64,000 nucleotides of DNA from an uncultured Chitinophagaceae bacterium (GTDB lineage: Bacteria; Bacteroidota; Ignavibacteria; UBA10030; UBA8401). The notes beneath the pieces are model-generated. The model worked only from the letters and a program-made list of their open reading frames with translations. It was not told where the DNA came from and ran no database searches. Positions 6,792 to 43,334 of the stretch are shown in pieces (the stretch's first letter is position 1; each line of letters begins with the position of its first letter). The stretch lies in assembly GCA_964439265.1 (NCBI GenBank), contig CAYTOA010000001.1, forward strand, positions 133,236-197,235. Direction: 5' to 3'. A program made the translations under genes and the position numbers.

Positions 6792-7319
6792 ATGAAACTC
6801 ACACCTCTTGATATAAAGAAACAGGAGTTCAAGAAGGTTCTTCGGGGATATGACCCGGTGGAGGTTGATTCATTCCTGGACATGATGTCCAATGAGTTCG
6901 CCGATCTGATGCGACAATCCAAAGAAATGAGCGGGCAACTCGTTGAATTTGAAACGCAGCTTCGCGATTACCGGCAGATGGAGAAGACGTTGCAGCAGAC
7001 ATTGATGCAGGCGCAGGAAGCCAGCGGCAGGTCGATCGAGAACTCGCGTAAAGAAGGGCAGTTGATTATCCAGGAGTCGGAGTTGAAAGCGAACCAGCTT
7101 CTAGACCGCGCACGGATGGAACTTTCCAGAACCAGGGAAGAGATCGCGAACCTCCGCTCGAAAAAAGAATCGATCGTCAGCCGGCTGAAAGTACTGCTGA
7201 ATTCAGAGATCGACCTGATCAAAGCGCTTGAGGTCGACGATGATGAATTGACGAGGGACTTGTCGAGAGGAACTGGGAAAGATTCGATAGAAATTGACGA
7301 GATTATTAAGAAGCTGTGA
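6792..7319 (+). CDS. DivIVA-domain cell-division protein
   Basis: 175 aa. N-terminus MKLTPLDIKKQEFKKVLRGYDPVEVDSFLD is followed by a coiled coil. It lies immediately downstream of yggS. Confidence 0.88.
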   Translation: MKLTPLDIKKQEFKKVLRGYDPVEVDSFLDMMSNEFADLMRQSKEMSGQLVEFETQLRDYRQMEKTLQQTLMQAQEASGRSIENSRKEGQLIIQESELKANQLLDRARMELSRTREEIANLRSKKESIVSRLKVLLNSEIDLIKALEVDDDELTRDLSRGTGKDSIEIDEIIKKL

Positions 7320-7413
7320 ACAGTGATCAGTGAACAGTAAACAGCTGTCGGTAAACAGTAAGTCGAAAATAAGTCGCAATCTAAAATTGGCAATTGTAAA
7401 TCGAAAATAGACA
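7320..7413. repeat. Low-complexity word tract (CAGTGA/ACAGTAA words), a member of a dispersed intergenic family
   Basis: ACAGTGATCAGTGAACAGTAAACAG... The 18-mer TGATCAGTGAACAGTAAA (7324-7341) recurs exactly at 31712-31729, and related words occur at 15138-15197, 29498-29526 and 35662-35712. Confidence 0.7.
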
Positions 7414-8235
7414 ATGTCTCCCCTACGCCAGCACATTGATGATACGATAAGATTTTTACGCACAAAGACTTCGGCATCGCCGGCGATCGGGATCATTTTG
7501 GGGACAGGCCTCGGAGGATTGGCAAAAGAAATCAAGACCGAGGTGGTGCTCGACTACGGCGATATTCCGCATTTCCCTTTGTCGACCGTCGAATCCCATC
7601 ATGGCAAGTTGATCTTTGGGACTCTTGGAAGGAAGAGTGTCGTTGCGATGCAGGGGCGCTTTCATTTTTATGAAGGCTACACCATGCAGCAGATCACGTT
7701 TCCGATCCGTATGATGAAATTCCTCGGGGTCGAGACGCTACTCGTTTCCAACGCTGCCGGAGGAATGAACCCTGCATATTCCCGCGGGGATATCATGCTG
7801 ATTACCGACCATATCAATTTGCTCGGCGACAATCCGTTGATAGGCCCCAACGATGATACTCTTGGGCCCCGCTTTCCGGACATGTCCGAGCCGTATACAA
7901 GAGATCTGATAGCATTGACCGAAAGAGTTGCGAGCGATTTAAAGATCAAAGTTCAAAAGGGAGTTTTCGTTGCCGTCCCTGGTCCCAACCTTGAGACACG
8001 CGCCGAGTATCGATTTCTTCGAGGAATCGGAGGAGACGTGGTCGGCATGTCTACAGTGCCGGAATGCATCGTAGCAGTCCACATGTCGATGCGAGTGCTG
8101 GGATTTTCGATTATTACGGATGAGTGTTTCCCTGACACACTCAAGCCGGCGAAACTTGATGAAATTGTTGCAACAGCGATGGCCGCAGAGCCGAAACTAA
8201 CCGCGATCATGAAAGAAGTGGTAAATCAATTATGA
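7414..8235 (+). CDS. Purine nucleoside phosphorylase (trimeric PNP family)
   Basis: 273 aa with [22 protein letters not shown] and VGMSTVPE motifs. Confidence 0.9.
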
Positions 8236-8309
8236 ATTAATAATTAAGAATTAAAAATGGTAGTTCAACAAGCAACCCCTGAATGGCCCCTCTTTAATTA
8301 TTAATTCAT
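8232..8309. repeat. AT-only inverted repeat / hairpin between the phosphorylase gene and ileS
   Basis: Perfect 16-bp arms ATGAATTAATAATTAA (8232-8247) and TTAATTATTAATTCAT (8294-8309). A second pairable word is ATTAAGAATT / AATTCTTAAT. The left arm overlaps the phosphorylase stop codon. Confidence 0.75.
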
Positions 8310-8334
8310 AATTCTTAATCATTAATTGTTTTCT

Positions 8335-13715: not shown

Positions 13716-13773
13716 CCCTCACCCAGTCCTTCGGACATCCCACTCCCGAAAGGAGAGGGACTAAGGGTGAGGG
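13716..13773 (+). repeat. GC-rich nested-hairpin repeat, copy A (upstream of the DUF559 gene)
   Basis: Sequence CCCTCACCCAGTCCTTCGGACATCCCACTCCCGAAAGGAGAGGGACTAAGGGTGAGGG. Outer stem CCCTCACCC/GGGTGAGGG; inner stems AGTCC/GGACT and CTCC/GGAG. Confidence 0.8.
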
Positions 13774-13796
13774 AGCTACTAGCTCGGGGGGATCCA

Positions 13797-14174
13797 ATGG
13801 GGAAACGATTCATCTCTTCGTCTCAATTTTCAACAACGAAGGCCCGTGCGCTTCGTCGGACGATGACTCCGGCGGAAAAGAGGTTCTGGTTGCTGGTGAG
13901 GAACAATCATATGGGCGTTAAATTTCGGAGACAATTCTCCATCGGCCCTTACATTGTAGATTTCTTTTGTTTTTCTGCGAAATTGGTAGTAGAGCTGGAT
14001 GGGAGTCGGCATTTTACCAGAGAAGGGAAAGAACAAGATTTTCATCGCGGTCAATTTCTACAAGCGCTCGGGATCACGGTACTTCGGTTTTCGAACAAGG
14101 AATTTTTAGCGAATCAGGAGGGAGTGATGCGGCTGATTTGGGAAAGTTCGCACAAAAAGGATCCCTCACCCTGA
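13797..14174 (+). CDS. DUF559 (Vsr-like fold) endonuclease-domain protein
   Basis: ARALRRTMTPAEKRFWLLVR...FRRQFSIGPYIVDFFC...LVVELDGSRH...VLRFSNKE matches the DUF559 pattern I know. The track start at 13767 lies inside repeat A, so the ATG at 13797 is preferred. Confidence 0.8.
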   Translation: MGKRFISSSQFSTTKARALRRTMTPAEKRFWLLVRNNHMGVKFRRQFSIGPYIVDFFCFSAKLVVELDGSRHFTREGKEQDFHRGQFLQALGITVLRFSNKEFLANQEGVMRLIWESSHKKDPSP

Positions 14175-14196
14175 CCCTCTCCCTTTGGAAGAGGGA
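14163..14196 (+). repeat. GC-rich repeat, partial copy B (overlaps the DUF559 stop codon)
   Basis: CCCTCACCCTGACCCTCTCCCTTTGGAAGAGGGA, with hairpin CCCTCT/AGAGGG. Its 5' CCTCACCCT is complementary to AGGGTGAGG at 14292-14300. Confidence 0.7.
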
Positions 14197-14249
14197 ATTA
14201 TGTCGAGATTATTTCTTTAAATGATTATTTGCTGCTATTGGAAAAGTTT

Positions 14250-14300
14250 CCCTCTCCTTGGAGGAGAGGGATGTCCCGACGAAGTCGGGACAGGGTGAGG
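14250..14300 (-). repeat. GC-rich nested-hairpin repeat, copy C (inverted relative to copy A)
   Basis: The reverse complement reads CCTCACCCTGTCCCGACTTCGTCGGGACATCCCTCTCCTCCAAGGAGAGGG and aligns block by block with copy A. Internal perfect hairpins are CCCTCTCC/GGAGAGGG and GTCCCGAC-GAA-GTCGGGAC. Confidence 0.8.
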
Positions 14301-14308
14301 TTCTAATA

Positions 14309-15133
14309 TTACTTCTGAGATTTTTCTTCCAGACGGACCTTCTCGATGTTCGGAGTGAAAATTACCACAAACGCTTCCTCGAGCTTCACAAAATCCACCG
14401 CCGGTACAACTTCTACCCGCTTGAACAGACTGCCCGATATCTCGGTCACAGCGCCGACGACTCCTATCTTGATGTTCGGCGGAAATACATTGCTGTATTC
14501 CGACGTCACGATTGCATCCCCAGTACGGACGTCGAGCGACTTTGCGATATTCTTCAGCATGACGGACCTGCCGTCCCACGCGATGATGCCGTCAACCCTG
14601 CTTCGCTGGACTTTGGCGCTTGCCCGAAAGTCTGCGTTGAGCATCGCCTGGCAGACTGAATAGTCTCCGCTGACAGCGATCACCCTTCCGACTAGCCCCT
14701 CGCCGGTGACCACGGGCATCCCGACTGCAACGCCGTCGTTTTCACCGATGTTCATCGTCAGCGTATTCCGTAGAAGGTTGAGATTCTTTGCAACGATCTT
14801 CCCGGCGATGAGCTTTGTTGTCGTTGTTTCTTTCAATGCGATCATGGAGCGGAGGCGCATGTTCTCTAGCCGCGCCTCCCGAAGTTGATTGACTTCATCG
14901 GCGAGGTTCACATTCATTTTTCGCAGCATTTCGTTCTCGCGCTCCATCTCGAAAACGTTCGGAATTACCGACACGGTGCTTTGGAAGGCGCCGACCATTC
15001 CCACCGCCAGCGAGCGAATACGCCGGACCTGTTCGTTATCATTCTGGGTGAGAAGGCCGATAGAGACGAGTACGAGGAAGGAAAAAATGATATACTCTTT
15101 GAAGAGAAAGTACAGTTGGTAGAGGCGCTGCAT
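14309..15133 (-). CDS. mreC: Rod shape-determining protein MreC
   Basis: 274 aa with an N-terminal TM helix, a coiled coil (ENEMLRKMNVNLADEVNQLRE) and a beta-barrel C-terminal region. It lies directly downstream of mreB. Confidence 0.9.
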   Translation of the reverse strand: MQRLYQLYFLFKEYIIFSFLVLVSIGLLTQNDNEQVRRIRSLAVGMVGAFQSTVSVIPNVFEMERENEMLRKMNVNLADEVNQLREARLENMRLRSMIALKETTTTKLIAGKIVAKNLNLLRNTLTMNIGENDGVAVGMPVVTGEGLVGRVIAVSGDYSVCQAMLNADFRASAKVQRSRVDGIIAWDGRSVMLKNIAKSLDVRTGDAIVTSEYSNVFPPNIKIGVVGAVTEISGSLFKRVEVVPAVDFVKLEEAFVVIFTPNIEKVRLEEKSQK

Positions 15134-15137
15134 TTTT

Positions 15138-15197
15138 CAATGATCAGTGATCAGTGAACAATGATCAGGAGGGATTTTCATTGTTCATTGATCATTG
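15138..15197. repeat. Imperfect hairpin between mreB and mreC (CAATGATCAGTGAACA word family)
   Basis: Left arm CAATGATCAGTGATCAGTGAACAATGA (15138-15164); right arm TCATTGTTCATTGATCATTG (15178-15197). This gives a 20-bp stem with one G-U pair and a 7-nt bulge. Confidence 0.75.
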
Positions 15198-15211
15198 TTA
15201 ATTGTTAATTG

Positions 15212-16237
15212 TTAATACCGCCGGTTCTTAATAAGCACTTTTGAATAGTGGTTCAAGTTTTCCAGGACCTTTCCCGTGCCGCGGACGACGGCGGTCAGCG
15301 GGTCTTCAGCGACATGGACGGGCAAATTTGTTTCGAGCCTGAGCCGCTCATCCAGTCCCTTCAGCAGCGCACCTCCACCAGACAGCATGATGCCTCGGTC
15401 GAGAATATCCGAGGAAAGCTCGGGAGGAGTCCGTTCCAGGGTTAATTTGACGGCGTCGACGATCTGCTGGATGCACTCGTTCAGCGATTCCCGGATCTCC
15501 ACCGAACTTGCTTCCGTAGTTTTTGGAATTCCGTTCACAAGGTCACGCCCTTTGACCTGGATCGTCACTTCTTCTTTGAGCGGCATCACCGACCCGACCT
15601 CGCACTTGATCGCTTCCGCCGTACGTTCGCCGATGAGAATGTTATGATTCTTCTTGAAGAACTGGATGATCGCTGAATTCATTTCATCGCCTGCGATGCG
15701 GATGGATTCCTCGTTCACGATTCCCGACAGTGCAATGACGGCGATCTCCGTCGTTCCGCCCCCTATGTCGACGACCATGTTGCCCACGGGGTTGTCGACG
15801 TCGAGTCCGACGCCGATCGCCGCGGCCATCGGCTCCGCGATAAGGTGCACTTCTTTTGCCCCTGCATGTTCGGCTGAGTCCCGCACGGCACGCTTTTCTA
15901 CCTCCGTCACGCCGCTGGGTACGCAGATGACGATGCGCCGGCTCGGCAGCCAGTTTGCGTGGATTTTTTTTATGAACTCCCGCAGCATCCCCTCTGCGAT
16001 TTCAAAATCTGCGATAACTCCGTCTTTCATCGGCCGGATGGTGCGGATGTCGCGGTGCGTGCGTCCGAGCATTTCTCTCGCTTCGTTTCCGATCGCGACT
16101 ATTTTTTTTGTGTTCCGGTCAAAGGCGACGATCGATGGTTCATTGAGGACGATGCCTTTGCCCTTCATATGGATAAGCGTATTGGCCGTACCGAGGTCGA
16201 TTGCGAGGTCTGCGGAAAATAAGGAAAGAATTCCCAT
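15212..16237 (-). CDS. mreB: Rod shape-determining protein MreB
   Basis: DLAIDLGTANTLI, the phosphate-2 motif DIGGGTTEIAV, and LSGGGALLKGLD. The ATG at 16237 is preferred over the TTG at 16246. Confidence 0.95.
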   Translation of the reverse strand: MGILSLFSADLAIDLGTANTLIHMKGKGIVLNEPSIVAFDRNTKKIVAIGNEAREMLGRTHRDIRTIRPMKDGVIADFEIAEGMLREFIKKIHANWLPSRRIVICVPSGVTEVEKRAVRDSAEHAGAKEVHLIAEPMAAAIGVGLDVDNPVGNMVVDIGGGTTEIAVIALSGIVNEESIRIAGDEMNSAIIQFFKKNHNILIGERTAEAIKCEVGSVMPLKEEVTIQVKGRDLVNGIPKTTEASSVEIRESLNECIQQIVDAVKLTLERTPPELSSDILDRGIMLSGGGALLKGLDERLRLETNLPVHVAEDPLTAVVRGTGKVLENLNHYSKVLIKNRRY

Positions 16238-29497: not shown

Positions 29498-29528
29498 CAA
29501 TCATCAACGAACAATGATCAATGACCGA

Positions 29529-29556
29529 GCGCCGATGAATGTTCATCGGCGCTTTT
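29529..29556 (+). terminator. Rho-independent terminator after nrdJ
   Basis: 11-bp arms GCGCCGATGAA / TTCATCGGCGC (29529-29539 / 29542-29552), followed by TTTT. Confidence 0.8.
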
Positions 29557-29656: not shown

Positions 29657-30241
29657 ATGCAGACCGCGACTGTTCAGCGAAAAACAAAAGAGACCGACAT
29701 CTCCGTTGTCCTGCGGCTCGACGGAACCGGAAAATATTCCGTCTCGACCGGCATCGGTTTTCTCGACCACATGCTGGAGCTGTTTGCCCGGCACGGAATG
29801 TTTGACATCCAACTGAAGTGCAAAGGAGATCTGCGCGTTGACGACCATCATACGACGGAAGACGTCGCCATAGCCCTCGGGCAGGCGTTCGGCAAGGCCT
29901 TGAAAGAAAGAGCGGGGATCGCCCGCTACGGCTCAGCATACGTGCCGATGGATGAATCTCTTGCACGGTGCGTCGTCGACCTTGGCGGCCGTTCCGCGCT
30001 GGTCTTCAAGGCCGAGTTCAACCGAAAGAGCGTTGGCGACCTGTCGACCGAGATGATCAAACACTTCTTCCTTTCCTTTGCGGAGAACATTAAGGCGAAT
30101 ATCCATGTTGAACTTCTATACGGCTCGAACACGCACCATAAGATAGAGGCGATGTTCAAAGCATTGGCCAGGGCTCTGCGCATTGCATGCGAGAAAGATG
30201 CAAGAGTGAAAGGCGTGCTGTCGACGAAAGGAAAACTCTAG
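29657..30241 (+). CDS. hisB: Imidazoleglycerol-phosphate dehydratase (monofunctional)
   Basis: 194 aa with RKTKETDI, GIGFLDHML, DDHHTTED and HHKIEA motifs. Confidence 0.95.
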   Translation: MQTATVQRKTKETDISVVLRLDGTGKYSVSTGIGFLDHMLELFARHGMFDIQLKCKGDLRVDDHHTTEDVAIALGQAFGKALKERAGIARYGSAYVPMDESLARCVVDLGGRSALVFKAEFNRKSVGDLSTEMIKHFFLSFAENIKANIHVELLYGSNTHHKIEAMFKALARALRIACEKDARVKGVLSTKGKL

Positions 30242-30323
30242 AAAAGTTAAAAATTAAAAGTGAAAAGTTAAAAGCTTGTACGAAGCAATTTTTAACTTTG
30301 AATTTTAAACTTTTAACTTTTTT
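30242..30323. repeat. AT-rich imperfect hairpin between hisB and hisH (AAAAGTTAAAA word family)
   Basis: The left arm AAAAGTTAAAAATTAAAAGTGAAAAGTTAAAAGC has no C until its final base. The right arm GCAATTTTTAACTTTGAATTTTAAACTTTTAACTTTT is nearly G-free. The left arm is 23/26 identical to the reverse complement of 39646-39676. Confidence 0.8.
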
Positions 30324-30326
30324 GCT

Positions 30327-30923
30327 ATGATTGGAATAATCGACTACAAACTTAACAACCTGCGTTCCGTGCAGAAGGCGTTCGAGAAGGTTGGAACATC
30401 CGCGTTCATTTCGAGCGACGCGAAAGAGCTCTCACGCGCCGAAAAACTTGTGCTGCCCGGGGTTGGAGCTTTCGGAAAAGCGATGGAGAACATCAGGGCG
30501 CTCGGACTGGAAGAATTTATCCGCAGCAGCGCAAAGGAGGGCAAGCCGCTCATCGGAATATGCCTTGGAATGCAGCTTCTTTTCACGCGGAGCTCTGAGA
30601 ACGGATTGCACGACGGACTGAATTTGATTGCGGGAGATGTAACGCTGTTTCCGGACAGCGTGAAAGTTCCGCACATCGGATGGAACCAGATAGAAATCCA
30701 GCATGAATCAAAAATTCTGAAATCGGTCGTCGATAAAAGTTTCGTCTACTTTGTCCACTCGTACTACGCACAACCGCAGGAGCAGGTAACATTGACGACA
30801 ACCGAGTACGGCTTTCATTTTACCTCCATTGTTCAGAAGGACGATATTTTCGGCATCCAATTTCATCCTGAAAAAAGCCAGGTAGCCGGTCTTCAAATAT
30901 TGAAAAACTTTTCCGAATTATAG
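30327..30923 (+). CDS. hisH: Imidazole glycerol phosphate synthase, glutamine amidotransferase subunit
   Basis: 198 aa with LPGVGAFG, GICLGMQLL (catalytic Cys) and FHPEKS motifs. Confidence 0.95.
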   Translation: MIGIIDYKLNNLRSVQKAFEKVGTSAFISSDAKELSRAEKLVLPGVGAFGKAMENIRALGLEEFIRSSAKEGKPLIGICLGMQLLFTRSSENGLHDGLNLIAGDVTLFPDSVKVPHIGWNQIEIQHESKILKSVVDKSFVYFVHSYYAQPQEQVTLTTTEYGFHFTSIVQKDDIFGIQFHPEKSQVAGLQILKNFSEL

Positions 30924-31693: not shown

Positions 31694-31701
31694 ACAATAA
31701 A

Positions 31702-31806
31702 CAATGAACAATGATCAGTGAACAGTAAAATATAATGCGAGACCGGCTTGTGAACTAAACCCCTAAAACCTCTTTATGATAATTGATCATTGCTCATTGT
31801 TCATTG
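31702..31806. repeat. Inverted repeat between hisA and hisF (CAATGAACAATGATCA word family)
   Basis: CAATGAACAATGA (31702-31714) pairs with TCATTGTTCATTG (31794-31806), and CAATGATCA pairs with TGATCATTG (31784-31792). The loop is ~66 nt. Confidence 0.7.
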
Positions 31807-31812
31807 AAGAAA

Positions 31813-35661: not shown

Positions 35662-35712
35662 GCAGCGATCAGTGTTCAGTAATCAGTTAATAGTAAACAG
35701 TAGACAGTAGGT
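35662..35712. repeat. Low-complexity CAGT/TAG word tract after the EEP gene
   Basis: GCAGCGATCAGTGTTCAGTAATCAGTTAATAGTAAACAGTAGACAGTAGG uses the same vocabulary as 7320-7345. Confidence 0.6.
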
Positions 35713-37068: not shown

Positions 37069-37114
37069 AGGGGAAGCTTTTAGCTATTTGCTGTTAGTGG
37101 TTGGGGGGGGACCA

Positions 37115-37468
37115 ATGAGAAACTTCAGGAAACTCATTATTTGGCAGCAAGGTATACAGCTTGTAGCCGATGTCTACAAGCTGTCGGAAGAATTACGAGA
37201 TTGGGAAAAATACGGATTGAAGAGCCAGACCTGCCGAGCTGTTGTTTCTATCCCATCTAATATTGCAGAAGGATGTAGCAGACCAAGCGAGATAGAGTAC
37301 AGACGATTTTTGGAAATCGCTTTGGGATCGGCGTTTGAGCTTGAGACTCAGATTATAATTGTTCACAAACTTCATTTGGCTTCAACTGAAAGAGTTGGAA
37401 CTTTGAGAACCTGTCTCGAGATAGAACAGAAAATGATCAACGCATTGATTAGCAGGTTGAACCAATAA
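37115..37468 (+). CDS. Four-helix-bundle protein (23S rRNA intervening-sequence protein / Avd-like family)
   Basis: 117 aa: MRNFRKLIIWQQGIQLVADVYKL...SIPSNIAEGCSR...EIEYRRFLEIALGSAFELETQ. The NIAEG motif and size are typical of the family. The track start at 36968 lies inside serS. Confidence 0.85.
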   Translation: MRNFRKLIIWQQGIQLVADVYKLSEELRDWEKYGLKSQTCRAVVSIPSNIAEGCSRPSEIEYRRFLEIALGSAFELETQIIIVHKLHLASTERVGTLRTCLEIEQKMINALISRLNQ

Positions 37469-37496
37469 GCAAAATGCAAATAGCCAACAGCGAAAT

Positions 37497-39260
37497 ATGA
37501 AGTCACTGCTCCGTCTTCGTCCGTACCTCGCCAAGTACCAACGCACTCTCCTGTGGGGAGTTTGCACTGTTGTCATCAGCAACTTGTTTGTCGTGGCGAC
37601 GCCGCTCTTCATTGGAAATGCCGTCGATACCATCAAACATGGCGTCGATACCGGAGTGCTTCAGTATTCAAAACTCATCAGGGATGCCGGATTGATCGTC
37701 GTTTTTGCCATCGTCGCTGGTTTTATGACCTTTCTCACGAGGCAGACGATCATTGTCGTTTCGCGCAAGATTGAATACGATCTGCGCAACGACTTTCTTG
37801 CCCACATACAAAAGCTGCCTCTTAATTATTTCCAGAACACCCCCACCGGCGATCTGATGGCGCATGCGACGAACGACATCTCTGCAGTGCGCAACGCTCT
37901 CGGTCCGGGCATCATGTATCCCTCCGACACGTTCATGACGTTTTCCATGGCGTTGACGCTGATGTTCGTCAAGGATTGGTCGCTGACGCTCGTCGCGCTT
38001 GTTCCTCTCCCCCTCATCTCCTACGCCGTCTACAAGCTTGGAAAGATCATTCATGCAAAGTTCAACGAACGGCAGGAGCAGTATTCGCTCCTCACGACGC
38101 GCGCACAGGAGAACCTCTCCGGTATCAGGGTCGTCAAGGCGTATGTCCGCGAAGAGTACGAGATCGGCCTGTTCGAGAAATTGAGCTGGGTGTACCTGAA
38201 GAAGAATCTCGTGCTGGCAAAAGCGCAGTCGATCATGTGGCCGCTGATGTACATGCTGGTCGGTATCTCGCTGGTCATCACGGTGTACTTCGGCGGACTG
38301 CAGGTTATCGCGGGGAAAATATCCATCGGAACATTGACTGCCTTCTTCACATATCTTTCGATGCTGATATGGCCGATGATCGCCTTCGGATGGGTCACGA
38401 ATATCATCCAGCAGGGAGCGGCGTCGATGGAGCGGCTTGCGAAGATTTTCGACACTGTGCCGGAGATCCGCGATACGGAAGAGACAGATATCTTGATCAA
38501 GCACATCGACGGAGAGATCGAATTCAAGAATGTTTCTTTCACTCATAAAGGCGCGGCAAAGCCGACCCTCAGAAACATCGACCTCAAAATCCCGAAAGGT
38601 ACGACGCTCGCCGTTGTCGGCTACACCGGCGCCGGCAAGAGCACGTTCATCAATTTGTTGCCGCGGCTGTATGACGTGACGGAAGGGGAATTGCTTATTG
38701 ACGGCATCAACATCAAAAAAATTCCCCTGGAGGTTCTGCGATCACACGTTGGATGTGTGCCGCAGGAAACATTCTTGTTCTCGGAAACGATCTCCGAAAA
38801 CATCAGCTACGGTGTGGACGGAATGACTCACGAACAGGTCCGCGAAGCCGCGGAGATCTCACAAATTGCGAAAGACGTGAACGACTTTCCGCAGCAATTC
38901 GAGACCGCGCTCGGCGAACGCGGGATCACGTTGTCGGGAGGTCAGAAGCAGCGCACAAGTATTGCCCGTGCCATCCTGCGGGAGCCGAAAATTCTGATCC
39001 TTGACGATGCACTTTCATCGGTGGATACGTACACCGAAGAAGCGATACTTAAACGACTTCGCCGCGTCATGGAAAACCGGACGAGCATCATCATCAGTCA
39101 CCGCATTTCGACCGTCAAGGATGCCGATATGATCATCGTGATGGACAAAGGGGAGATCGTAGAGCGGGGACGTCACGATGAGCTTGTCGAACTCAACGGC
39201 ATCTATGCGAACCTGCATTACAAGCAGCTGCTGGAAAGGGAGCTGGAACAGCTCAATTGA
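37497..39260 (+). CDS. ABC exporter, fused permease/ATPase (half-transporter 1)
   Basis: 587 aa with 6 TM helices, Walker A GYTGAGKST, signature LSGGQKQR and Walker B ILILDDA. Confidence 0.92.
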   Translation: MKSLLRLRPYLAKYQRTLLWGVCTVVISNLFVVATPLFIGNAVDTIKHGVDTGVLQYSKLIRDAGLIVVFAIVAGFMTFLTRQTIIVVSRKIEYDLRNDFLAHIQKLPLNYFQNTPTGDLMAHATNDISAVRNALGPGIMYPSDTFMTFSMALTLMFVKDWSLTLVALVPLPLISYAVYKLGKIIHAKFNERQEQYSLLTTRAQENLSGIRVVKAYVREEYEIGLFEKLSWVYLKKNLVLAKAQSIMWPLMYMLVGISLVITVYFGGLQVIAGKISIGTLTAFFTYLSMLIWPMIAFGWVTNIIQQGAASMERLAKIFDTVPEIRDTEETDILIKHIDGEIEFKNVSFTHKGAAKPTLRNIDLKIPKGTTLAVVGYTGAGKSTFINLLPRLYDVTEGELLIDGINIKKIPLEVLRSHVGCVPQETFLFSETISENISYGVDGMTHEQVREAAEISQIAKDVNDFPQQFETALGERGITLSGGQKQRTSIARAILREPKILILDDALSSVDTYTEEAILKRLRRVMENRTSIIISHRISTVKDADMIIVMDKGEIVERGRHDELVELNGIYANLHYKQLLERELEQLN

Positions 39261-39283
39261 AAATTAAAAATGCAAAATTAAAA
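39257..39283. repeat. Left arm of the AT-rich inverted repeat flanking the four-helix-bundle ORF
   Basis: TTGAAAATTAAAAATGCAAAATTAAAA matches the reverse complement of 39646-39676 (GTGAAAAATTAAAAGTGTAAAATTAAAAAAA) at ~26/29 positions with one 1-nt gap. Confidence 0.8.
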
Positions 39284-39645
39284 TGGCACACGAGGGGGAT
39301 ATTCTTGATCGTACATACAAGTTTGCCTTGCGCGTCATTGCACTATCTCGTCAGTTGCCCGACTCAACGGATAGCCGGGTTCTGATTCGACAACTTGTAC
39401 GCTCAGGCACCTCTGTTGGGGCGAATGTGGAAGAAGCAACGGCAGGTTCGTCGAGAGAAGACTTTATATACAAAATGAATATTGCGTTAAAAGAAGCGCG
39501 TGAAACTCACTATTGGTTACGCTTGGCAAGAGATAGCAAATACGTCAGCCCGAAAAAATTTGATGCAATTATTCAAGAGGCAGATGAACTTCGAAGGATA
39601 TTAGGCGCTATTGTTAGTAAAAGCCGAAGCTCGGGGAAACAATAA
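39283..39645 (+). CDS. Four-helix-bundle protein (23S rRNA intervening-sequence protein / Avd-like family)
   Basis: 120 aa: DRTYKFALRVIALSRQLP...QLVRSGTSVGANVEEA...KMNIALKEARETHYWLRL. Confidence 0.85.
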   Translation: MAHEGDILDRTYKFALRVIALSRQLPDSTDSRVLIRQLVRSGTSVGANVEEATAGSSREDFIYKMNIALKEARETHYWLRLARDSKYVSPKKFDAIIQEADELRRILGAIVSKSRSSGKQ

Positions 39646-39676
39646 TTTTTTTAATTTTACACTTTTAATTTTTCAC
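39646..39676. repeat. Right arm of the AT-rich inverted repeat flanking the four-helix-bundle ORF
   Basis: TTTTTTTAATTTTACACTTTTAATTTTTCAC; see the left arm at 39257-39283 and the homologous hairpin at 30242-30323. Confidence 0.8.
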
Positions 39677-39683
39677 TGATACA

Positions 39684-42472: not shown

Positions 42473-42874
42473 CTATTTTATCCACCTTACTTTAATCTTG
42501 CTTTCCACCTGTTTAAACTCTTTATCGCCGGTCACAAGTTCGCACTTCTTTTTCATTGCCAGAGCCGCAGCAAAACAATCTGCGAACGACATTTTGTTGA
42601 AAGCCTTTAGTTCTGCAGCGGTTCGGGTCAATTCTTTGTCTGCATCGACCACCTGGATCGGCAGCGCGTGCAAAGTGTCTTCTGCCAGTTTCGCCGTCTT
42701 TTCACCGCCGGTGCGATAGCCGTGATATAGAACTTCTCCCCAGTTGACAACGCACATGTATGCTATGCGGTCCTTTAAAACACATTCGTCGAGCACGGCG
42801 GAGACCTCGTCGTAGCCTTCTTCGCGTTCCAGAAAAGAAATCAAGGCGTAGCTGTCTAATACTGTTGCTTTCAT
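42473..42874 (-). CDS. vapC: PIN-domain toxin (VapC family)
   Basis: 133 aa with an acidic quartet pattern (LDSYALI..., ...NWGEV..., SFADCFAAA, ...TGDKEF). It overlaps the upstream antitoxin gene by 4 nt. Confidence 0.85.
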   Translation of the reverse strand: MKATVLDSYALISFLEREEGYDEVSAVLDECVLKDRIAYMCVVNWGEVLYHGYRTGGEKTAKLAEDTLHALPIQVVDADKELTRTAAELKAFNKMSFADCFAAALAMKKKCELVTGDKEFKQVESKIKVRWIK

Positions 42875-43101
42875 AACTCGCGCTCCCGTTTCTTGTCATC
42901 CATGAGCGACTTGAGCATTTTGCCATCTGTCCCCAAAATGCCAGCAAGGCTTTCAAAATAGTTTTTGTCGAGGGGCTGGATGATAAGCTTCCCGTTCTGC
43001 TCGATGAATGCGATCTTTGTCCCCTTTTTTATTCCGAACTTACGGCGGATGCTCGCCGGAACGACAACCTGTCCTTTAACGGTTACAACTGATGTTTCCA
43101 T
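42871..43101 (-). CDS. AbrB/MazE/SpoVT-family antitoxin
   Basis: 76 aa with VTVKGQVVVPASIRRKFGIKKGTKIAF, a swapped-hairpin barrel motif. Confidence 0.85.
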   Translation of the reverse strand: METSVVTVKGQVVVPASIRRKFGIKKGTKIAFIEQNGKLIIQPLDKNYFESLAGILGTDGKMLKSLMDDKKREREL

Positions 43102-43334
43102 GGGTATCCTCTTTGTTTTCTAAAGGATACAACAATCTTATATGTAAGTCAAGAAAAGAATAGACTTACTTTATCTTTTTACTTACTACCTGTAGATTTC
43201 TCAAATTAGTGTTTACGGAGGTTTTTCAGTCAACAGTCTGCATGCTGTCTGCGTAATTGCTTGGAATTTTAACCCGTTTTCCCTACTTTCATTTCAGCAG
43301 GTCTTTTTCCTAATCTCTGCAACCTGAGTAACCA

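Follow-up and report, generated by a model that had tools for sequence, protein, structure and literature searches.

Genes annotated as "four helix bundle protein" number in the hundreds of thousands inside operons, and a homologous four-helix bundle, the Avd protein of the diversity-generating retroelements (DGRs), forms a pentamer that binds nucleic acid and reverse transcriptase. In the 23S rRNA of Coxiella burnetii, a 428-nt intervening sequence (IVS) in helix 45 folds into a stem-loop which encloses an open reading frame (ORF) for the S23p protein (PF05635); the stem is cut by RNase III, three tandem GACAGAT heptamers, variable in number among strains, precede the S23p ATG, and the ORF itself is decaying, with a 176-bp deletion in one strain (PMC4990558). 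Ralph and McClelland proposed such IVSs to be mobile (cited in PMC4990558), and a pentameric assembly was reported for the Xanthomonas S23p (PMC4990558). Heptamer direct repeats upstream of start codons have been described, unexplained, in Beggiatoaceae, Cyanobacteria and Bacteroidetes (PMC4679880), and PF05635 genes beside cas4 and cas6 were noted earlier (PMC3936711). Here we analyse a stretch of 64,000 nt (the window) from an uncultured Chitinophagaceae bacterium (GCA_964439265.1, contig CAYTOA010000001.1, positions 133,236 to 197,235) and in it a hairpin without an ORF in the spacer between hisB and hisH. Its arms resemble those of a stem-loop which lies between two neighbouring ABC-transporter genes, ABC1 and ABC2, and encloses IVP2, a PF05635 protein gene (IVP); a second such gene, IVP1, lies between ABC1 and the upstream serS. 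The hisB-hisH hairpin is probably, at a rough probability of 0.6, an ORF-less derivative of an IVS-like selfish element of mRNA spacers, belonging to a family of intercistronic inverted-heptamer stem-loops that in their full form carry a PF05635 gene in the loop.

The hisB-hisH spacer is 85 nt long, and the 82-nt hairpin takes up almost all of it (Table 1). Tandem arrays were called by Tandem Repeats Finder (TRF), RNA families by Rfam, and fold stability was evaluated against shuffled sequences. The left arm, (AAAAGTT)x4.7, pairs with the right arm, (TTTTAAC)x4.6, both of period 7, in a stem of about 30 bp nearly devoid of G-C pairs, with a minimum free energy of -24.7 kcal/mol against a shuffle mean of -12.6 (z = -4.45; none of 200 shuffles as stable), and the hairpin is identical in an independent assembly, L001 (L-numbers label loci fetched from other assemblies). 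The apical loop is GCTTGTACGAAGC, of which 5-9 nt are unpaired depending on whether two T-A pairs are counted; the 9-nt loop proposed in an earlier, sequence-only reading of the window corresponds to the upper figure. That reading had also pointed out the hairpin itself and the polarised composition of its arms, correctly in both cases: the left arm is without C until 30275 and the right arm has two G, because a purine-only arm pairs with a pyrimidine-only arm. It had overlooked that the arms are 7-nt tandem arrays. By eye, the loop also resembles the 3′ end of the IVP2 ORF (AAAAGC...CGAAGC...CAAT), a likeness too short to test and not used here.

The segment AAAAATTAAAAGTGAAAAGTTAAAAG (30249-30274) matches the reverse complement of 39648-39673, in the right arm of the IVP2 element, at 23 of 26 positions with three mismatches, as had been proposed, with the partner arm originally drawn slightly too wide (39646-39676). 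A match of this level did not occur in 100 shuffles of the window, and a chance agreement of AT-rich words is unlikely under composition-matched random sequence (P = 5.5e-4) but the match is only moderately significant under a model that treats the two arms as independent random heptamer arrays with the same composition (P = 0.044); taken alone, it therefore indicates a shared motif class and does not prove direct descent. Among 99 distinct arrays from other loci, eight match the hisB-hisH left arm at 23 or more of 26 positions, and all eight are arms of the ABC1-ABC2 junction in other species, the best being that of L058 with 25/26.

The filled counterpart in the ABC1-ABC2 spacer has a left arm of TGAAAAT TAAAAAT GCAAAAT TAAAATG units, which contains both the stop codon of ABC1 and the ATG of the ORF, and an inverted repeat (39253-39283 / 39649-39679, 84% complementary) which encloses an ORF of 363 nt, stop codon included, in agreement with the sequence-only reading. 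The encoded IVP2 scores well above the family cut-offs in both Pfam PF05635 (91.2 bits, cut-off 33.8) and TIGR02436 (105.2 bits, cut-off 24), and its closest solved structure is PDB 2RLD (E = 5.7e-24). The DGR accessory protein Avd was considered as an identity for IVP2 and rejected, with a score of 25.8 bits against a cut-off of 80 for NF033474 and no reverse transcriptase, template repeat or variable repeat nearby. The dN/dS of intact IVP2 is 0.07-0.15, and purifying selection acts on intact IVP ORFs. The second filled element, in the serS-ABC1 spacer, is built likewise, with GCTTTTA GCTATTT GCTGTTA in the left arm and GCAAAAT GCAAATA GCCAACA GCGAAAT in the right; IVP1 is annotated PF05635 and is also matched by a family hidden Markov model (HMM) built in the analysis. 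The elements occupy operon spacers, from the upstream gene's stop codon to the start codon of its downstream neighbour. Matched arms pair better than arms mismatched with those of other species (-22.3 against -16.9 kcal/mol, permutation p about 1e-4), and a comparison of the window with L171 and L184 shows two compensatory G-C to A-T pair changes in the stem. In some IVPs, the A-rich heptamer arrays themselves encode the Lys/Ser-rich C-terminal tail (L030 2188-2276 and the IVP1 3′ ends of L171 and L184-L185), and there the right arm can pair either with the distant left arm or, as a local hairpin, with the ORF's own 3′ end.

Table 1. Coordinates of the stem-loop elements, heptamer arrays and adjoining his genes in the 64,000-nt window
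Feature	Position	Strand	Description
hisB	29657-30241		PF00475; stop codon ends at 30241
hisH	30327-30923		PF00117; ATG at 30327
ORF-less heptamer-repeat hairpin, hisB-hisH spacer	30242-30323	+	left arm 30242-30274, apical mini-stem/loop 30275-30289, right arm 30290-30323
Filled element, ABC1-ABC2 spacer	39258-39683	+	left arm 39258-39283, IVP2 ORF, right arm 39646-39679
IVP2, 120-aa four-helix-bundle protein	39283-39645	+	PF05635 / TIGR02436 "23S rRNA intervening-sequence protein"
Second filled element, serS-ABC1 spacer	37069-37496	+	left arm 37077-37097, IVP1 ORF 37115-37468, right arm 37469-37496
ORF-less heptamer hairpin, hisA-hisF spacer	31694-31807	+	CAATGAA/CAGTGAA class; 52-nt loop; -27.9 kcal/mol, z = -4.5
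ORF-less heptamer hairpin, mreB-mreC	15131-15216	-	CAATGAT/CAGTGAT class
ORF-less heptamer hairpin, PNP-family phosphorylase gene-ileS	8228-8327	+	AATTAAK class; 45-nt loop
Unpaired array GTGAACA x4.1	7316-7344	+	directly after DivIVA-family gene stop codon
Unpaired array CAATGAT x3.9	29498-29524	+	directly after ribonucleotide-reductase stop codon; then GC-rich terminator-like hairpin 29527-29554
Unpaired arrays ATCAGTA / AGTAGAC	35668-35710	+	upstream of serS

The proposal of the sequence-only reading that the two structures are filled and empty versions of one stem-loop is supported at orthologous junctions of related species, where the presence of the ORF can be compared directly and the arms are kept in some of the loci that lack it. 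A scan for ABC1 in species-representative genomes yielded 80 orthologous loci (Ignavibacteriota and metagenome-assembled genomes (MAGs) labelled "Bacteroidota"), in 72 of which the ABC1-ABC2 spacer could be measured. About 30 species have no element and a spacer of -1 to 23 nt, 21 species have a hairpin without an ORF, often heptamer-armed and of varied motifs, in 41-230 nt, and in 17 species an IVP ORF lies between an A-rich left arm of AAAAGTN type and a T-rich right arm in 413-501 nt (946 nt at one locus), the few remaining species carrying other, larger inserts. These frequencies are biased, as most loci in the analysis were retrieved via IVP or adjoining genes, and many loci come from MAGs in which repeats are possibly misassembled. 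A GGAGG-like motif often precedes the ATG in the ORF-bearing loci. The ORF-less spacers of L050, L053, L055 and L061 still have AAAAGTN-class arms, either the right one or the two together, and are remnants of a filled element. At this junction of one relative, an insert of about 1.2 kb (L087 1460-2643) contains, by reading of the sequence, an ORF resembling a repetitive extragenic palindrome (REP)-associated tyrosine transposase (RAYT; IS200-type) and several GGTCGGCATTTATGCCGACA REP-like hairpins, with an AAAAGTN-class right arm still adjoining ABC2.

The serS-ABC1 junction adds the intermediate stages. The ORF is intact in the window, L171, L184 and L185 and frameshifted or interrupted by stop codons in L011-L013; L173/L174 hold a remnant of about 220 nt in which the two arms are kept but the ORF is reduced to its 3′ third, L181/L182 a hairpin of about 100 nt with other heptamers, and L014 has no element. 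Together, the two series establish that one stem-loop does exist in filled and empty forms, and one documented route from the former to the latter is an internal deletion that removes the ORF. The element can also change at a fixed site: among four species with ABC1 at 94% identity, there are two types of IVP that share only about 50% identity, both placed inside a right arm with a conserved end (...CTTTTCACTGAnnnATG), and the distribution of the types disagrees with the ABC tree. Simple vertical inheritance of IVP2 was rejected on the same difference between types and on the weak correlation between the IVP and ABC distance matrices (Spearman 0.23). The trees are rough, being neighbour-joining trees of short proteins.

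At hisB-hisH, the comparison covers five relatives, and by HisH identity the related loci rank as L208-L211 (90%), L091 (88%), L092 (82%) and L093 (77%). All five relatives have a heptamer-armed hairpin in this spacer, which in every case belongs to a CA(A/G)TNAN class unrelated to AAAAGTN. In the closest relative, L208, the flanking coding DNA is roughly 90% identical to that of the window and even the non-coding spacer between the ribonucleotide reductase gene and hisB is 88% identical, whereas the approximately 80 nt between the hisB stop codon and the sequence TGCTATG cannot be aligned. Alignable flanks around an unalignable hairpin mean that the hairpin was replaced recently and precisely in the lineage of the window by one with the arm motif of IVP2. 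That the hairpin is a derived copy without an ORF is more probable than that it is a vacant site yet to receive one; it may have come about by insertion of a full element with later loss of the ORF, or by copying of the arms alone. A GC-rich terminator-like hairpin close by (29527-29554; L208 1700-1727) is conserved, in contrast to the replaced one, with changes at 29527-29529, at 29552 and in the loop at 29542. Gaps of 420-930 nt in the his operons of L094, L113, L148 and L099 were examined as possible IVP sites and rejected, since they hold ordinary genes or unrelated sequence; the ORFs in them are, by reading of their translations, acetyltransferase-like, phosphatase-like and proC-like.

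Beyond these junctions, the heptamer motif follows the lineage of the protein. All five sampled homologues of IVP2 (54-88% identity) lie at the ABC1-ABC2 junction between AAAAGTN arms. The IVP1 lineage is more widespread: homologues at 73-79% identity lie at serS-ABC1, and those at 59-66% are found at other sites and in other taxa, namely between split metH genes, upstream of a LexA-like gene, and between hemCD and hemE in Olleya (Flavobacteriaceae). GCTNTTN arrays flank every such site, six in all from three phyla. Of the fetched loci, 29 contain the degenerate pattern GCTNTTNGCTNTTNGC, and all 29 have an IVP1-lineage ORF or its remnant; the pattern is absent from the 182 other loci. It lies mostly on the + strand upstream and on the - strand downstream of the ORF, and in some loci on one side only. 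In the IVP1 arms, 16 consecutive nucleotides are identical between the window and Olleya, and as neutral DNA would be randomised at that protein divergence, the sequence of the arms must be constrained beyond mere pairing. More generally, a stringent period-7 array lies within 110 nt of 34 of 51 non-identical IVP ORFs, compared with 56 of 1120 control ORFs.

Plasmids extend the same pattern. A tblastn search of plasmids with IVP1 returned 19 records, 18 cyanobacterial and one from Gemmatimonadota, and heptamer arrays flank the IVP gene in all 12 cases examined (Nostoc, Calothrix, Anabaena, Geminocystis, Stanieria, Pseudanabaena, Picosynechococcus and Gemmatirosa). The units differ from plasmid to plasmid, with (GGGAACA)n / (CTGTTCC)n in Nostoc, (AAAAGGG) / (CCCTTTT) in Geminocystis, (AAAAGCT)x15 in Pseudanabaena, about 40 units of GGTGACA/GGGAACA in Anabaena 90, (GGGTGTA) / (CTACACC) in Calothrix and (CTGCCCT)n in Gemmatirosa. 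The genes are mostly co-oriented between operon partners, such as parA|parB, cas6|cas4, cmr2|cmr3 and TraM|hyp, the last being a gene for a hypothetical protein. On two plasmid sequences, one a complete plasmid of 49.7 kb and the other the first 50 kb of 56 kb, six of the eight period-7 arrays lie at the single IVP gene, and one of the remaining two shares its motif with the arms of that gene. An IVP gene between cas6 and cas4 occurs in two genera with different heptamers, AAAAGCT in Pseudanabaena pPg_01 (L200) and the roughly 40 GGTGACA/GGGAACA units in Anabaena 90 pANA02 (L205/L213); in L200, GCTNTTA arrays also bracket cas6 and cas4.

By analogy with the rRNA IVSs, the element would be transcribed together with its host operon, and the long A-U duplex might then be cut by RNase III or simply be tolerated; the stem at hisB-hisH, at about 30 bp, is of a length compatible with such excision. 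Cleavage would separate the cistrons and, in filled elements, release the ORF segment. The arms and the ORF probably spread or are copied as a unit, and the ORF-less hairpins would originate where an internal deletion removes the ORF or where the arms are copied. The IVP protein may recognise its own heptamer arrays, as the conservation of the motif with the protein lineage across phyla suggests. A considerably broader proposal, which we put forward tentatively and regard as doubtful, is that PF05635 proteins bind their own arrays sequence-specifically and that protein and arrays form a self-propagating unit which seeds, maintains or copies hairpins into operon spacers and rRNA helices, which would explain at once the IVSs of 23S rRNA, the "four helix bundle protein" genes scattered in operons and cas loci, and the repeats of the short tandemly repeated repetitive (STRR)/TAACTGA type in Cyanobacteria, Bacteroidota and other phyla. 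One may even speculate that each subunit of a pentameric ring would hold one heptamer, which would fit the 4-5 copies per arm.

Several observations weigh against the descent of the hisB-hisH hairpin from a mobile IVP element. No ORF was found inside the hisB-hisH stem among the five relatives sampled (two HMMs on his operons). As ORFs of the IVP2 lineage are found only at ABC1-ABC2 (none of the five homologues sampled lies at another genomic site), motif and site are confounded for that lineage. The hisB-hisH hairpin is the only clear AAAAGTN example elsewhere, besides two serS-ABC1 spacers, so the mobility of the IVP2 lineage rests on the allele swap and on this hairpin. The long-range stem of the IVP2 element is weak (-11 to -14 kcal/mol), and the entire element shows no stability beyond shuffles (z = +0.28), only the arm duplex being informative. 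Neither a transposase nor an integrase, recombinase or reverse transcriptase lies near the elements, and to this is added the modest significance of the arm match under the heptamer-array model.

The last of these points fits an alternative in which the arrays form on the spot. They would arise and expand in place by replication slippage and be inverted by quasi-palindrome correction, A-rich units being shared through genome-wide composition or slippage bias. The hairpins would then belong to the host and act, for instance, in mRNA processing or stability or in the decoupling of translation, and IVP genes would merely tend to land in them. Heptamers are indeed the commonest long simple repeat in many bacteria, often located just upstream of start codons (PMC4679880); the window itself contains unpaired arrays, and the CAATGAT/CAGTGAA class occurs at five window sites with no IVP nearby. 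However, slippage in place does not account for a motif bound to the IVP lineage across phyla and insertion sites, for a hisB-hisH hairpin that switched class wholesale next to non-coding DNA 88% identical to that of L208, for best matches of its arm that are all IVP2 arms, or for arrays that cluster at the IVP gene on two plasmids, and we consider this explanation unlikely.

Still less probable appears a mobilisation in trans resembling that of miniature inverted-repeat transposable elements (MITEs) or REPs, in which a transposase from another locus mobilises the inverted arrays as terminal repeats and the IVP gene travels along as a passenger. The inverted repeats, the several copies of one class per genome and the one precise replacement would suit such a mechanism, as would the RAYT-like gene and REP-like hairpins at the ABC1-ABC2 junction of L087. 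Yet there is, by eye, no target-site duplication at either the hisB-hisH hairpin or its counterpart in L208, the limits being set by the stop codon and TGCTATG; the elements and their surroundings are free of transposase genes; the arms repeat a heptamer internally, in varying copy number, and are not fixed termini; and the cargo always belongs to the same protein family, is under purifying selection and matches the motif in lineage. A terminator or attenuator between hisB and hisH, suggested by the TTTTTT that follows the hairpin and by arms rich in A on the 5′ side and in T on the 3′ side, as bidirectional terminators have them, is highly improbable, because the hairpin lacks a short G+C-rich stem and was not flagged in the terminator scan, which in this genome flags short GC-rich stems with a T run (for example, 29527-29554), because the hairpins lie inside conserved operons (his, mreBC and the ABC-transporter gene pair), with overlapping or abutting genes at the ABC junction in many relatives, and because the same architecture encloses a 363-nt gene.

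The remaining arrays of the window show how common the period is. Three further ORF-less heptamer hairpins, at hisA-hisF, mreB-mreC and PNP-ileS, each fold significantly better than shuffles, and three unpaired arrays lie directly after stop codons. The hairpin arms are intergenic and have 4.1-5.3 copies of period 7 by TRF (3.4 in one row, 8235-8258), above the minimum of three copies that defines heptanucleotide repeats. The fetched loci, 1.19 Mb in total, contain 130 arrays of period 7; period 4 reaches 50 and period 5 reaches 24, and periods 6 and 8-12 have six at most. Most units of the arrays at 7316-7344, 15137-15216, 30242-30321 and 31694-31807 contain TAA or TGA, and since 7 is not a multiple of 3, three consecutive such units give a stop codon in all three frames; CAATGAT units likewise put ATG in all three frames, a property that may bear on termination and re-initiation from one cistron to the next. 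In arms so rich in A and T, promoter-like matches are to be expected from base composition. Rfam found one tRNA only in the window, with no rRNA and no known RNA family over the hairpins.

Two other small gene modules were observed in the same stretch. At 13733-14276, an ORF for a DUF559 (Vsr-like endonuclease) protein (13767-14174) is enclosed by a G/C-rich inverted repeat of GGGAGAGG / CCCTCTCC / GGTGAGGG type, with a local hairpin TCCCTCTCCTTGGAGGAGAGGGA at 14249-14271, and represents a second kind of ORF in a stem-loop in the window. A PIN / MazE-type toxin-antitoxin pair (42473-43105; L001 13191-13819), located downstream of the ABC operon, is kept in the closest relatives, one of which has an extra HNH gene beside it.

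The analysis links three puzzles that have for decades been treated separately and without an explanation, the 23S rRNA IVSs with or without an S23p ORF, the four-helix-bundle genes of operons and the heptanucleotide repeats, in that the same gene family is found inside inverted heptamer arrays in mRNA spacers of at least four phyla with a motif that tracks the protein lineage. No paper was found that connects PF05635 genes in operon spacers with heptamer hairpins; the literature coverage was incomplete and an earlier description is possible. If descent from an IVS-like element holds, these loci would represent a class of small selfish or regulatory elements, presently annotated as an anonymous gene and unannotated repeats, and operon spacers in these phyla could be exchanged wholesale between close relatives. 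It would also raise the hypotheses that the protein binds its cognate heptamers and that operon mRNAs are processed by RNase III at the stems.

Of the known systems, the IVSs of Coxiella and Leptospira 23S rRNA are similar in a number of respects. They likewise have a PF05635 ORF in the loop, an inverted-repeat stem that encloses the insert and tandem heptamers, varying in copy number, immediately before the ATG, and they share a deletion-prone ORF, ORF-less forms and signs of horizontal transfer. In contrast to them, the window elements lie between protein-coding genes and not in 23S helix 25 or 45, both of their arms are heptamer arrays, and intact ORFs of the window type are under purifying selection, many with a GGAGG-like motif upstream of the ATG. 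With the STRR/TAACTGA repeats they share the period of 7, the intergenic location, often ending a few nucleotides from a start codon, genome-specific motifs and 7-nt indel steps, and the CAGTGAA/CAGTTAT classes observed here are the reverse complement of TCACTGA/TAACTGA-like units (PMC4679880). Those repeats, however, are direct and of unexplained function, with a single inverted set among 170 in the work of MacGregor, whereas the arrays here form hairpins as inverted pairs and are tied to a specific protein gene. Finally, the combination of REPs or bacterial interspersed mosaic elements (BIMEs) with RAYT genes, known as REPtrons, offers a parallel in its short palindromic elements in operon spacers, in a gene flanked by inverted copies of the dispersed repeat and in a repeat cognate to the gene lineage. 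The flanked gene in the present, putatively mobile elements encodes a small PF05635 four-helix bundle without a known catalytic fold instead of a Y1 (IS200/IS605-like) transposase, and heptamer arrays take the place of a fixed palindrome.

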